This document shows positions 24,968-26,957 of a stretch of 64,000 nt of DNA, in pieces. This stretch comes from Patescibacteria group bacterium (lineage in GTDB: Bacteria; Patescibacteriota; Microgenomatia; Levybacterales; UBA12049). The translations under genes were made by a program, and so were the position numbers. The stretch covers positions 131 through 64,130 of the forward strand of contig JBGTMH010000032.1 in assembly GCA_041743715.1 (NCBI GenBank), in the 5' to 3' direction. Below the pieces are notes generated by a model, which searched no databases, had not been told where the DNA came from, and saw only the letters and a program-made list of their open reading frames with translations. Position 1 is the stretch's first letter; each line of letters opens with the position of its first letter.

Positions 24968-24988
24968 TTAGCGATACTGGTATATGGG

Positions 24989-25073
24989 CGGAGAGAGCGA
25001 GATTCGAACTCGCGGAATCTTACGAATCGACGGTTTAGTAAACCGTTACCATAGGCCACTCGGTCATCTCTCC
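24989..25073 (-). tRNA. Class II Ser-type tRNA whose anticodon loop reads UUACUAA (anticodon ACU)
   Basis: The reverse complement is GGAGAGA TG ACC GAGTGGCCTAT GGT A ACGGT TTACTAA ACCGT CGATTCGTAAGATTCC GCGAG TTCGAAT CTCGC TCTCTCC G. All stems are intact, the variable arm is long and the discriminator is G. Confidence 0.6.
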
Positions 25074-25489
25074 AATTGATGCGGACAAATACTACCATAT
25101 CTGGTTGCCCAATTACAATTCATACAAAGAATTCTATACCCTATTGGAAAGCTATTTTTCTTTAACCATCTATACATATGTACCCCACTTATATTATAAC
25201 CGAATAATTCCTTCCTTTGCTTATTACCATTTCCTTTTTCATGATCTATTGTTAGGAACTGCAGTATGCTTATACCACAACAACTGCATTCTTTTCCATA
25301 ATAGCCAAAGCATTCATTTCTTAGTTTTACTATTGCCTTTTTCGAAGTACTTCTGCCCCTAATCCTATCTTTCTCCCTATGGTAGGTACAGTAAGTTGTG
25401 CTCCCCTCAGCCACGGGTAATGGACAAACTCTACATAATCCAAGTGCTTTATGCCGTAATGCATAATCTTTTCTACTCATATTGCACAA
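25064..25489 (-). CDS. HNH / endonuclease VII-like nuclease
   Basis: 141 aa with Cys-rich zinc-ribbon-like motifs (CRVCP..CTYH). The core CSCCG..LTIDHEKGNG...ILCMNCNWA resembles HNH/EndoVII homing-type nucleases. It sits between tRNA genes. Confidence 0.55.
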   Translation of the reverse strand: MCNMSRKDYALRHKALGLCRVCPLPVAEGSTTYCTYHREKDRIRGRSTSKKAIVKLRNECFGYYGKECSCCGISILQFLTIDHEKGNGNKQRKELFGYNISGVHMYRWLKKNSFPIGYRILCMNCNWATRYGSICPHQLER

Positions 25490-26286: not shown

Positions 26287-26395
26287 CTCCCATTCAGTGG
26301 TACGATTGTGATAAAATACACTTTGTATAAACCGTTTAGTGTTTAGTATAAAACTGGGTACAAATCCCTAGAACCTATTCCTAAACCCTAATTTC

Positions 26396-26445
26396 GCTCT
26401 CGTAGCTCAGTTGGATAGAGCGGTCGCCGCGGCGACAGGCCGGAG
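26396..26445 (+). pseudogene. Truncated tRNA-Arg-like 5' fragment
   Basis: GCTCTCG TA GCTCAGTTGGATAGAGC G has an acceptor and D-arm nearly identical to the two Arg tRNAs downstream. It continues into the 14-nt palindrome GTCGCCGCGGCGAC (only a 4-nt loop), then AGGCC GGAG. It stops mid T-stem, with no T-loop or 3' acceptor. Confidence 0.6.
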
Positions 26446-26450
26446 ATATA

Positions 26451-26702
26451 ATGTATTACATCTATATTTTAAGAAGCTTAAAAAATAGTAGGCTTTATAC
26501 TGGTTCAACTGAAGATCTCAACAAGAGATTAAATCAACATAATACGGGGATAAGTAAATATACTCGCTTAACTAGACCGTTCGAATTACTCTATACTGAA
26601 ACTTATAATACAAGATCCGAAGCAGTAAAAAGAGAGACATATTTAAAAACAGGCAAAGGCAGGGAAGAAATAAAAGAAATACTTAAGAATAAATTAACAT
26701 AA
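26451..26702 (+). CDS. Small GIY-YIG nuclease-family protein
   Basis: 83 aa. MYYIYILRSLKNSRLYTGSTEDLNKRLNQHN...R..E..LK matches the GIY-YIG motif, the Arg and the Glu of the family. The GGAG of the tRNA fragment sits 5 nt upstream of the ATG. Confidence 0.85.
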   Translation: MYYIYILRSLKNSRLYTGSTEDLNKRLNQHNTGISKYTRLTRPFELLYTETYNTRSEAVKRETYLKTGKGREEIKEILKNKLT

Positions 26703-26776
26703 GCACCCGTAGCTCAGTTGGATAGAGCGCAACATTGCGGATGTTGAGGCCGGAGGTTCGAATCCTCTCGGGTGTA
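26703..26776 (+). tRNA. tRNA-Arg (anticodon GCG)
   Basis: GCACCCG TA GCTCAGTTGGATAGAGC G CAACA TTGCGGA TGTTG AGGCC GGAGG TTCGAAT CCTCT CGGGTGT A. It starts at the nucleotide immediately after the GIY-YIG stop codon. Confidence 0.85.
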
Positions 26777-26782
26777 CTAAGG

Positions 26783-26869
26783 GGTGGGATGCGAGAGTGG
26801 TTGAATCGGATCGTCTCGAAAACGATTGTAGCTGTAAAGTTACCCCGGGTTCGAATCCCGGTCCCACCG
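26783..26869 (+). tRNA. tRNA-Ser (anticodon CGA)
   Basis: GGTGGGA TG CGA GAGTGGTTGAA TCG G ATCGT CTCGAAA ACGAT, then a long variable arm, CCGGG TTCGAAT CCCGG and TCCCACC G. Confidence 0.85.
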
Positions 26870-26878
26870 CCCCAACCC

Positions 26879-26952
26879 GCTCCCGTAGCTCAGTTGGATA
26901 GAGCACCAGATTCCGGATCTGGGGGTCGGAGGTTCAAATCCTCTCGGGAGTA
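26879..26952 (+). tRNA. tRNA-Arg (anticodon CCG)
   Basis: GCTCCCG TA GCTCAGTTGGATAGAGC A CCAGA TTCCGGA TCTGG GGGTC GGAGG TTCAAAT CCTCT CGGGAGT A. Confidence 0.85.
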
Positions 26953-26957
26953 CTTTT

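Follow-up and report, generated by a model that had tools for sequence, protein, structure and literature searches.

Why does the gene of a miniature GIY-YIG nuclease lie between a truncated copy of a tRNA-Arg gene and an intact tRNA-Arg gene that starts exactly where the nuclease gene ends? This question is raised by positions 26396 to 26776 of a 64,000-nucleotide (nt) stretch of contig JBGTMH010000032.1 (assembly GCA_041743715.1) from a Patescibacteria group bacterium of the Levybacterales, which was analysed at its full length and is referred to as the window. The comparative data make it on balance probable that the locus is one copy of a selfish cassette of the homing type that lives in tRNA genes, splits the resident gene and supplies a spare tRNA. 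As judged from the sequences, this cassette is composed of a GC-rich hairpin, a stub derived from the 3' part of a tRNA gene that gives the ribosome-binding site, a GIY-YIG gene of about 80 codons and an intact tRNA gene fused to the end of the open reading frame (ORF). Selfish GIY-YIG genes associated with tRNAs are already known, and the present locus is novel in the branch to which its protein belongs, in the conservation of the hairpin, in the splitting of a resident gene combined with a spare tRNA and in the fusion of ORF and tRNA; a description of such a GIY-YIG/hairpin/tRNA cassette was not found in the open-access literature searched. The features of the locus are the following.

26312-26321, plus strand: probable -10 region of the tRNA operon promoter, TAAAATACAC
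26322-26395, plus strand: leader between promoter and tRNA fragment, not conserved with the related locus L001
26396-26422, plus strand: 5' remnant of tRNA-Arg(GCG), GCTCTCGTAGCTCAGTTGGATAGAGCG, comprising the acceptor 5' strand and the D-arm (standard positions 1-26)
26423-26436, plus strand: GC hairpin (arms GTCGCC and GGCGAC, loop GC), the perfect palindrome GTCGCCGCGGCGAC, in the place of the anticodon arm
26437-26445, plus strand: tRNA positions 44-52 (variable loop and T-stem 5' strand), AGGCCGGAG
26451-26702, plus strand: GIY-YIG nuclease gene (PF01541), 83 amino acids, single domain, UPF0213/Slx1-like branch
26703-26777, plus strand: intact tRNA-Arg(GCG) of the GCACCCG/CGGGTGT class (ARAGORN; Rfam tRNA, 67.8 bits)
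26783-26953, plus strand: tRNA-Ser(CGA) and tRNA-Arg(CCG), native downstream genes of the same tRNA operon

The tRNA remnant and the nuclease gene of the window

A first, sequence-only reading of the locus had described acceptor and D-arm of the fragment as almost identical to those of the neighbouring Arg tRNAs. This likeness was confirmed, with two mismatches of the 27-nt sequence GCTCTCGTAGCTCAGTTGGATAGAGCG to tRNA-Arg(GCG) at 26703 and two to tRNA-Arg(CCG) at 26879. The D-arm 20-mer GTAGCTCAGTTGGATAGAGC has three occurrences in the 64 kb, namely the two Arg tRNAs and the fragment, and the likeness is thus not a matter of chance. It is also not confined to the D-arm, since the acceptor strand is identical in 7/7 positions to the functional Arg(GCG) allele of the relative L134 and the 9 nt of AGGCCGGAG are identical in 9/9 to positions 44-52 of the downstream tRNA-Arg(GCG). 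Between these two parts lies the palindrome GTCGCCGCGGCGAC, the only hairpin of its type in the window, with 14 nt in the place of a 17-nt anticodon arm. The remaining details of the layout proved to be correct as well: the fragment ends in the T-stem with GGAG (26442-26445), which lies 5 nt upstream of the ATG at 26451, so that the former T-stem occupies the Shine-Dalgarno position, and the TAA stop codon of the ORF (26700-26702) directly abuts G1 of tRNA-Arg(GCG) at 26703, as placed by both ARAGORN and Infernal.

The good preservation of acceptor and D-arm might suggest that the fragment is one half of a split, permuted or intron-containing functional tRNA, but we assign almost no probability to this explanation. 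Positions 26396-26445 do not form a cloverleaf, as the hairpin has 14 nt with a loop of 2-4 nt and no anticodon, and neither ARAGORN nor the Infernal-based Rfam scan at E<=10 yielded a tRNA model over this segment. A matching 3' half (CGAGAGC beside a T-arm) was not found in the window, and an intact tRNA of the same identity is adjacent. Other Rfam RNA families were likewise not detected over the fragment or the hairpin at E<=10. The 70 nt 5' of the fragment share about 54% identity with the corresponding region of L001 by global alignment, which is roughly the random level. The leader also contains the T-arm-like sequence GGGTACAAATCCC at 26356-26368, about 30 nt 5' of the fragment, which is possibly left from another tRNA copy that has decayed.

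The deduced 83-amino acid protein matches the Pfam GIY-YIG domain PF01541 over residues 1-70 with 70.5 bits (cutoff 22.6; E=1.4e-19). A search of the PDB with a family profile of 36 homologues retrieved 1ZG2 (BH0048, E=1.1e-13) and 1YWL (EF2693, 2.1e-12), which were deposited as hypothetical UPF0213 proteins, followed by five Slx1 entries; chains of the Seg, I-TevI or UvrC type were absent from this search at E<=0.01. In line with these matches, the TIGR01453 model of the Seg/I-TevI type matched residues 4-34 only and scored 25 bits, far below its cutoff of 56. Residues Y16, G18, H30 and E62 are invariant among the 36 homologues, and Y5, R26 and N31 are conserved in at least 90%; the catalytic roles of residues of the Y5, Y16, R26, H30 and E62 type were assumed by us from established knowledge on I-TevI and UvrC. 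Among four orthologous copies, dN/dS ratios of 0.11-0.15 were obtained, with synonymous sites near or at saturation. Judging from these sequence features, the window protein is probably an active and maintained mini-nuclease of the Slx1-like branch. A separate DNA-binding domain joined to the catalytic domain was not found in the 83 residues, which contain one domain only. PADLOC searches for an anti-phage defence system gave sub-threshold matches only. UPF0213/YhbQ-type GIY-YIG proteins are very common in bacteria, and the open-access literature searched contained no function or substrate for this type of protein.

With respect to expression, TAAAATACAC is probably the -10 region of the operon promoter, as suggested by the sequence TAAAATACA(C), the one promoter motif conserved at these loci, which is found 5' of tRNA-Arg(GCG) in most syntenic relatives and precedes +1 by about 8-12 nt in several alleles devoid of the nuclease gene (L112, L102, L109, L118). 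The consensus promoter scan did not call TAAAATACAC, and for a promoter or terminator of the ORF's own it gave nothing useful. The predicted minimum free energy of the leader is not unusual in comparison with shuffled sequences (z = -0.48). Leader, fragment, ORF and the three tRNA genes may accordingly be read as one transcript from the tRNA operon promoter. The message of the ORF would then begin 5' of the fragment, use the old T-stem as Shine-Dalgarno sequence and end at the RNase P cut at tRNA +1, in which case the stop codon of the window ORF would be the last triplet before the cut. A pairing between the acceptor strand and the Shine-Dalgarno sequence as translational switch was also considered and dropped, since TCTC and GAGA could pair in the window, whereas L001 does not allow such a pairing. 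A perfect TATAAT at 26447-26452 overlaps the start codon of the GIY-YIG ORF; because a transcript initiated there would miss the ATG, this motif is probably a by-product of AT richness.

Recurrence of the arrangement and of its hairpin

An exact look-up of the window nuclease, and of a database entry 100% identical to it, did not lead to any contig, and genomic contexts were taken from homologues. When one genome per species was scanned with the family alignment, 486 relatives were obtained, the best 80 of which were combined with loci identified earlier to a set of 85 independent loci; nearly all of these comparative data come from metagenome-assembled genomes or other metagenome assemblies. 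The hosts are mostly Patescibacteria (Saccharibacteria, Levybacteria, Woesebacteria, Berkelbacteria and Microgenomates), and the remaining ones belong to the Planctomycetota, Acidobacteriota, Bacteroidota/Ignavibacteria and a few more groups. An intact tRNA gene on the same strand abuts the ORF in 69 of the 85 loci, located downstream in 49 and upstream in 22 of them (two loci were counted in both classes), and a single case of an opposite-strand tRNA within 150 nt of the ORF was observed. The common plan is an ORF of about 80 codons that is oriented like the tRNAs and flanked by two copies of one tRNA gene, one of them intact and the other, partial or complete, with at least one hairpin. At least twelve tRNA identities are linked to the family (Arg, Asp, Val, Ile, Gly, Ala, Pro, Lys, Cys, Gln, Asn and Trp). 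In the syntenic locus L001, the nuclease is 77% identical to that of the window, the same fragment and palindrome stand 5' of the ORF, and tRNA-Arg(GCG) follows 2 nt 3' of it. Locus L002, which is situated in another genomic context, consists of the first 26 nt of tRNA-Asp, GTCGCCTTGGCGAC, AGGTC and then the ORF, the last 10 nt of which overlap an intact tRNA-Asp; versions with tRNA-Val, tRNA-Ile and tRNA-Ala are present in further homologue loci.

The sequence-only reading had proposed a search for other junctions of GIY-YIG genes and tRNAs with the geometry of the window; such junctions do exist, and they form part of a large family in which a mirror-image geometry, tandem arrays and loci with a hairpin at each border also occur. 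In type A, which includes the window, tRNA positions 1-26, the hairpin and positions 44 to about 50-60 precede the ORF and an intact tRNA follows it; the 5' strand of the former T-stem is in the Shine-Dalgarno position and the ATG often falls within the former T-loop. The combination of an ORF that has no spacer to the tRNA with a T-stem serving as putative Shine-Dalgarno sequence recurs in dozens of loci. In type B, the intact tRNA is followed after 0-25 nt by the ORF and then by a tRNA copy that starts from +1 or about position 17 and continues with the hairpin and the 3' part; here, the stop codon is the TAG of the D-loop or the TGA of the hairpin loop. Both types are found within one protein clade and one tRNA identity, and the ORF tree partly tracks tRNA identity, although this protein tree rests on 80 residues and is weakly resolved.

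In 22 of the 49 loci with a downstream tRNA, the last 10 nt of the ORF are also the first 10 nt of the tRNA, which makes the universal U8-A9-G10 (TAG) of the tRNA the stop codon. In total, the stop codon lies inside the mature tRNA in 30 of these 49 loci, and the distance between the conserved GKGRE motif of the protein and tRNA +1 is nearly constant with 32 or 35 nt. A stop codon inside the tRNA would be removed by processing, which should result in non-stop messages and a low nuclease level. This arrangement suggests a competition between tRNA maturation and nuclease expression.

In L094, three ORFs are repeated with a period of 289 nt, 70-nt trailing units occur in one or two copies among strains, and in L005, L011 and L012 one or two trailing units are joined at a TAGA microhomology. 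The tandem arrays and microhomology joints point to recombination and break repair at these loci. Several further peculiarities were observed. In L094 (1134-2183), L057, L064 and L095, GIY-YIG ORFs are arrayed in tandem, and a tRNA 3' piece with a hairpin follows every one of them. Locus L081 contains at 1080-1400 three tandem, near-full-length tRNA-Pro copies with a period of 108 nt, in which the anticodon arm is replaced by GTCGCCTAAGGCGAC; they lie directly 5' of an intact tRNA-Pro(GGG) and a GIY-YIG ORF, and the copy 3' of this ORF carries extra hairpins in the place of the T-arm. T-arm insertions are also present in trailing hairpin-tRNA copies of L037 (a 40-nt palindrome at about 1900-1960) and L003 (about 110 nt at about 1880-1990).

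The hairpin itself follows the consensus NYCGCC-N2-4-GGCGRN and adjoins the GIY-YIG ORF in at least 66 of the 85 loci. Perfect 6-bp GC-rich hairpins with loops of 2-4 nt occur at a density of 3.3/kb in the region from -120 to +200 nt of the ORFs, compared with 0.23/kb elsewhere in the same loci. When only the core GCC-N2-4-GGC was fixed, all three outer pairs were complementary in 103 of 129 cores near ORFs and in 36 of 253 elsewhere, with a chance expectation of about 1.6%. Compensatory pair types were observed at stem position 1 (G-C 62, T-A 32, C-G 16) and position 2 (T-A 64, C-G 49). Among the arms, GTCGCC is most frequent with 54 copies, followed by TCCGCC (23), CCCGCC (11) and rarer variants, and these roughly follow the protein clades. 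The loops are variable, with GC, TGA, TAA and TTA as the commonest ones. On both sides, the flanks of the hairpin align to the adjacent tRNA. Hairpins of the GTCGCC type replace the whole anticodon arm and those of the TCCGCC type positions 25-31 or 25-37, whereas the D-loop is replaced in Arg-ACG of Bacteroidota and positions 38-56 in Cys; second hairpins are found in the T-loop. The ratio of G-T to A-C mismatches in imperfect hairpins (14 versus 8) is not decisive for a function as RNA or DNA. The sequence-only reading was correct in placing the palindrome at the site of the anticodon arm with 3 nt too few, but by this comparison of sequences GTCGCCGCGGCGAC is not a shortened or mutated arm: it is an element-specific hairpin that is conserved whatever the tRNA.

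Two other roles of the hairpin-bearing segment were examined. An N-terminal extension of the nuclease encoded by the fragment was rejected, as the frame is open from 26406 but does not contain a start codon; the loop lengths of 2-4 nt and the TGA and TAA loops in relatives rule out conserved coding of the fragment. By analogy to OMEGA/TnpB systems, the RNA of fragment and hairpin could alternatively be a guide or scaffold for the mini-nuclease, with the tRNA 5' segment as guide and the hairpin as handle. The hairpin does stand directly beside the nuclease ORF and covaries with the protein clade, and the adjacent tRNA-derived segment matches tRNA genes. This role is nonetheless very improbable in our view, as an RNA-guided GIY-YIG nuclease is not known, the hairpin is found either 5' or 3' of the ORF and the tRNA pieces, the 5' part of the fragment can be lost (L026), and the segment has neither an Rfam match nor a special fold.

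Empty alleles and the split resident gene

Homologues of the flanking upstream gene (194 amino acids) were used to locate syntenic tRNA-Arg(GCG) loci. The uninterrupted alleles to be expected from an insertion were found in 21 of 25 syntenic loci, in which the flanking gene is followed after 53-309 nt by tRNA-Arg(GCG), with neither ORF nor hairpin. The filled loci are those of the window, L001, L029 and L032, all of which have the flanking gene. The flanking protein of the filled loci shares 56-61% identity with that of the window, whereas values of up to 81% were obtained for the empty ones, which places the filled loci in the more distant hosts; between the window and L001, it is 59% identical, compared with 77% for the nuclease. 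The cassette thus has a patchy distribution and is more alike between hosts than the neighbouring gene. The anticodon GCG of the tRNA-Arg is kept in 25/25 syntenic loci, with acceptor-stem classes that differ by compensatory changes; bacterial tRNA-Arg usually has ACG, unlike the GCG of this clade. Divergent GIY-YIG paralogues (36-40% identical) on the opposite strand were noticed in the same tRNA neighbourhood in L029 (350-562, minus strand) and L127 (724-948, minus strand), and one of these two genomes has an empty tRNA-Arg(GCG) site.

The acceptor stems of the empty alleles fall into the classes GCACCCG/CGGGTGT (the majority), GCTCTCG/CGAGAGC (L134), GTTCTCG/CGAGAAC (L112), GTGCCCG and GCTCCCG. 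Positions 26396-26422 of the window agree in 27/27 nt with the functional tRNA-Arg(GCG) gene of L134, an empty allele, while the intact copy at 26703 belongs to the GCACCCG class. The window locus is consequently a composite of two alleles and did not arise by local duplication. These findings bear on the simplest explanation, a one-off and decaying scar that was left by a local tandem duplication of the neighbouring tRNA-Arg and acquired its palindrome by chance. It would account for a truncated fragment that resembles the neighbouring Arg tRNAs, but it is refuted by the recurrence of hairpin and geometry across 85 loci that represent at least 12 tRNA identities; moreover, the fragment matches an allele other than that of its neighbour and is conserved across hosts with saturated synonymous sites. 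We hold it to be scarcely credible. The earlier proposal of a scar from cassette insertion or tRNA duplication therefore stands in so far as a nuclease cassette is tied to insertion into a tRNA gene, and falls in so far as it implied a unique event or a simple copy of the neighbour.

The fate of the resident gene is most apparent in the type A loci L042, L046, L056 and L047, which retain a trailing 3' piece behind the intact tRNA. This piece complements the upstream 5' piece, as in the pair GGGTAGC...GCTACCC, so that both represent halves of a single allele, from which the intact tRNA between them differs. In these loci, the resident gene was split at the anticodon-arm region by an insert that brought its own tRNA. 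The resulting layout is the resident 5' half, a hairpin, an insert of 3'-part stub, ORF, intact tRNA and D-arm stub, a second hairpin and the resident 3' half. In 10 of 13 loci, the loops of the two bordering hairpins are identical, in contrast to their wide variation from locus to locus. A right-hand remnant is missing from the window, L001, L029 and L032, where the intact copy runs straight into the native downstream tRNA-Ser. The order of tRNA-Ser(CGA) and tRNA-Arg(CCG) is common to the empty loci L112 and L134 and the filled locus L032. The intact tRNA-Arg(GCG) at 26703 is probably the copy that arrived with the cassette, and its anticodon arm is identical to that of the empty alleles. The allelic difference between remnants and intact tRNA, in the window as in L042, L046, L056 and L047, is consistent with co-conversion of flanking markers from a putative donor allele.

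From these observations, the following course of events is proposed for the window. The cassette would have entered the tRNA-Arg(GCG) locus from a donor allele by gene conversion or recombination. The resident gene would have been cut off after the D-arm, surviving as the 27-nt remnant at 26396-26422 with the hairpin as border, and the intact tRNA-Arg(GCG) at 26703 would replace the lost function. The nuclease is envisaged to make or provoke breaks in hairpin-forming tRNA-gene DNA, either at the anticodon-arm region or at the hairpin. A break between the 5' and 3' parts of the resident tRNA gene might then be repaired from a filled allele, with the resident 5' end pairing with the hairpin-bearing 5' copy of the donor and the other end with the trailing 3' copy, or with the intact copy and the downstream flank. 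Hairpin, ORF and intact tRNA would thereby be copied in, and the tRNA-derived pieces would act as homology arms. As the outcome of such a break-repair process, one would expect a fragment with the acceptor strand of the recipient, an intact tRNA of the donor type, the loss of the resident anticodon arm and identical border hairpins, as seen in the data. Aberrant products are also to be expected and are present in the form of TAGA-joined trailing units and tandem arrays. Hairpin insertion points that coincide with the three hairpins of the cloverleaf, together with nearest relatives that are structure-specific, lead us to favour a structure-directed enzyme.

Several points weigh against a selfish cassette of the homing type. 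The carrier tRNA has the same anticodon arm as the empty alleles, so that sequence immunity would not exist if this arm were the target, which departs from classical homing. A single domain of 83 amino acids that does not include a DNA-binding module makes sequence-specific homing hard to picture and a long recognition site unlikely, and to our knowledge neither an activity nor a target is known for any UPF0213 protein. The strict conservation of the hairpin is not explained by a pure role in borders or immunity. The cassette is old at this locus, as indicated by a dS of at least 1.2 between filled alleles; combined with an ORF tree that partly follows tRNA identity, its age makes long vertical residence or domestication possible. 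The family is barely represented among viral contigs and plasmids: one relative was detected in a scan of 2.9 million IMG/VR contigs, 19 of 50,697 phage records matched, all with less than 45% identity (the one inspected was not tRNA-linked), and carriage on plasmids or phages was essentially nil in the records scanned. Finally, repeats in metagenome assemblies can be mis-joined. In L013 (about 1800-1830), a tRNA-Val continues beyond position 48 with another T-arm and an acceptor 3' strand that does not pair with its 5' strand, as a result either of recombination between tRNA genes at the AGGTC junction or of a chimeric assembly.

Some of these difficulties would disappear with a cut-and-paste element targeted to hairpins. 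According to this explanation, the nuclease cuts the palindromic hairpins, either as a dimer on the duplex like GIY-YIG restriction enzymes or as a structure-specific enzyme, the segment between them moves to other sites with a hairpin, and solitary hairpin-tRNA copies are footprints or landing sites. The intact tRNA would then not be a target, which removes the problem of self-cleavage. Hairpins at both borders with identical loops in the 10 of 13 loci, solitary full-length hairpin-tRNA copies in L081, upstream copies in L085, L058, L064 and L072, hairpin arms that vary with the protein clade (GTCGCC, TCCGCC, CCCGCC) and the structure-specific Slx1 nucleases as closest structural relatives all accord with it. 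On the other hand, the first entry of a hairpin into a naive tRNA gene is left unexplained, the window, L001, L029 and L032 have a single hairpin only, the variation in loop length (2, 3 or 4 nt) speaks against a dimer with a fixed duplex site, and simple direct duplication equally predicts identical loops. We therefore regard such a mechanism as unlikely, though worth bearing in mind beside the homing-type cassette.

The conservation of the locus raises the question of a benefit to the host, with a domesticated module playing a cellular role at tRNA operons (repair or processing), the hairpin acting as an RNA element that stabilises the mRNA end or regulates it, and the fragment being kept as 5' leader. 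The protein is under purifying selection with the low dN/dS ratios given above, the co-orientation with the tRNA is strict and the family is nearly absent from phages and plasmids. Moreover, D-arm and hairpin of the fragment are 90-100% identical across the four hosts despite diverged functional tRNA-Arg copies (61-74%) and leaders that are alike at random level only. This conservation could stem from a function of the fragment, but a resident tRNA gene that was active until recently would explain it equally well, and we therefore do not regard purifying selection on the fragment as proven. A host function is difficult to reconcile with the 21 of 25 syntenic genomes that do without the cassette, the closest relatives included, and with tandem arrays, composite alleles and split resident genes, which are hallmarks of selfish DNA. 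A hairpin that precedes the ORF in type A and follows it in type B does not easily fit a single RNA role, and the fold energy of the leader is inconspicuous. Domestication thus appears quite improbable, and the homing-type cassette remains the preferred explanation.

In a wider sense, we tentatively suggest that the hairpin and the UPF0213/Slx1-like mini-nuclease define an unrecognised class of mobile elements residing in tRNA genes, in which a structure-specific nuclease would act on tRNA arms, on its own hairpin or on both, the resident gene would be split and the spare tRNA would serve as antidote. If true, this would be a compact drive that breaks the resident gene and supplies its own, as well as the first biological role for UPF0213, and the stop codon placed in the tRNA would allow tRNA processing to throttle nuclease expression. 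The partnership of tRNA copy, hairpin and ORF-tRNA fusion provides concrete candidate substrates for UPF0213 function. It also illustrates a way for selfish genes to reside in essential RNA genes that have no introns, namely to bring a spare copy, and it would account for a class of tRNA fragments and pseudo-tRNAs that confuse annotation in genomes of the candidate phyla radiation (CPR) and others. If the intact copy travels with the cassette, such elements may also drive the replacement of tRNA alleles between lineages.

The surroundings of the locus in the window include two further observations. A tRNA-Ser with the unusual anticodon ACT (A34) was predicted by ARAGORN at 24985-25074 on the minus strand, and this gene is also present in the syntenic relatives L102, L106, L109 and L112. 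Between it and tRNA-Ser(TGA), a cysteine-rich ORF of 138 amino acids (25067-25480, minus strand) matches a PHROG family of HNH endonucleases (E=1e-4), with no match in Pfam or the PDB. Its TGA stop codon is formed by U8-G9-A10 of tRNA-Ser(ACT), which is the same ORF-into-tRNA geometry as in the GIY-YIG family. In L102, L106, L109 and L112, the two tRNA-Ser genes are about 20 nt apart without an ORF between them, which suggests that a second nuclease gene, the HNH-like ORF, was inserted into this tRNA cluster.

Comparison with known nuclease genes and insertions

The closest known system is SegB of the phages T4 and T6, a free-standing GIY-YIG homing endonuclease whose gene, like that of the window protein, lies among tRNA genes. 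SegB cuts tRNA-gene DNA, its own genome included, and drives a duplication of segments containing tRNA genes and segB that depends on homologous recombination (PMC2330249; PMC13096335). Its substrate contains a motif of the TpsiC-loop, and co-conversion as well as segmental duplication of tRNA-nuclease units are promoted. SegB is statistically associated with tRNAs of many isotypes, and the cassette described here abuts a same-strand tRNA in most of its loci. SegB comprises about 220 amino acids with a C-terminal DNA-binding region. It is thus much longer than the 83-residue window protein, and the C-terminally truncated SegB-short is no longer toxic. SegB furthermore belongs to the Seg/I-TevI branch and is phage-borne, whereas the window protein belongs to the UPF0213/Slx1-like branch of a cellular family, and segB loci have neither a conserved hairpin nor a hairpin-interrupted tRNA copy nor an ORF fused to tRNA +1. 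The presence or absence at a conserved locus that is typical of Seg/I-TevI homing endonucleases is matched here by four filled and 21 empty loci.

With respect to the protein, the closest sequence family consists of UPF0213/YhbQ/YazA and Slx1 (1ZG2, 1YWL, 6SEH, 4XLG), which have the single GIY-YIG (URI) domain in common with the window protein. Slx1 is a structure-specific nuclease that acts on branched and stem-loop DNA; it contains a RING/PHD domain and needs Slx4, whereas the window protein is single-domain. A linkage to tRNA genes, a hairpin partner or mobility was not reported for UPF0213 or Slx1 in the open-access literature searched. Bacillus subtilis yazA and homologues from Rhizobium phages are 40-44% identical, and the inspected phage copy is not beside a tRNA.

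Integrase islands and prophages in tRNA genes likewise have one intact tRNA and a partial copy at the other border. The insert of about 0.3 kb in the window contains the GIY-YIG ORF only, and a tyrosine or serine recombinase gene was not found in it. Unlike in integrase islands, the leftover in the window is the 5' part of the tRNA gene (both halves in some loci) and not a 3' segment carried by attP, and the cassette brings an entire spare tRNA and a conserved hairpin at its borders.

In the same bacterial radiation, rRNA genes of CPR bacteria contain non-intron insertions that encode GIY-YIG proteins and tend to be located at the tops or bases of stem-loops (PMC11270868). Small GIY-YIG ORFs in genes of structured RNAs are thus common to both systems, but the rRNA insertions remain inside a functional gene, a duplicate gene copy or a conserved hairpin was not described for them, and homing was deemed unlikely for their spread by the authors (PMC11270868). 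Patescibacteria also appear to donate GIY-YIG genes by horizontal transfer (PMC12455944). An additional parallel is provided by fractured genes, in which a free-standing homing endonuclease gene lies inside an essential gene that is rescued by split inteins (PMC2677866). In both cases, a nuclease gene breaks an essential gene and a device restores the function; this device is protein trans-splicing in fractured genes, and a spare intact gene copy in the cassette described here.

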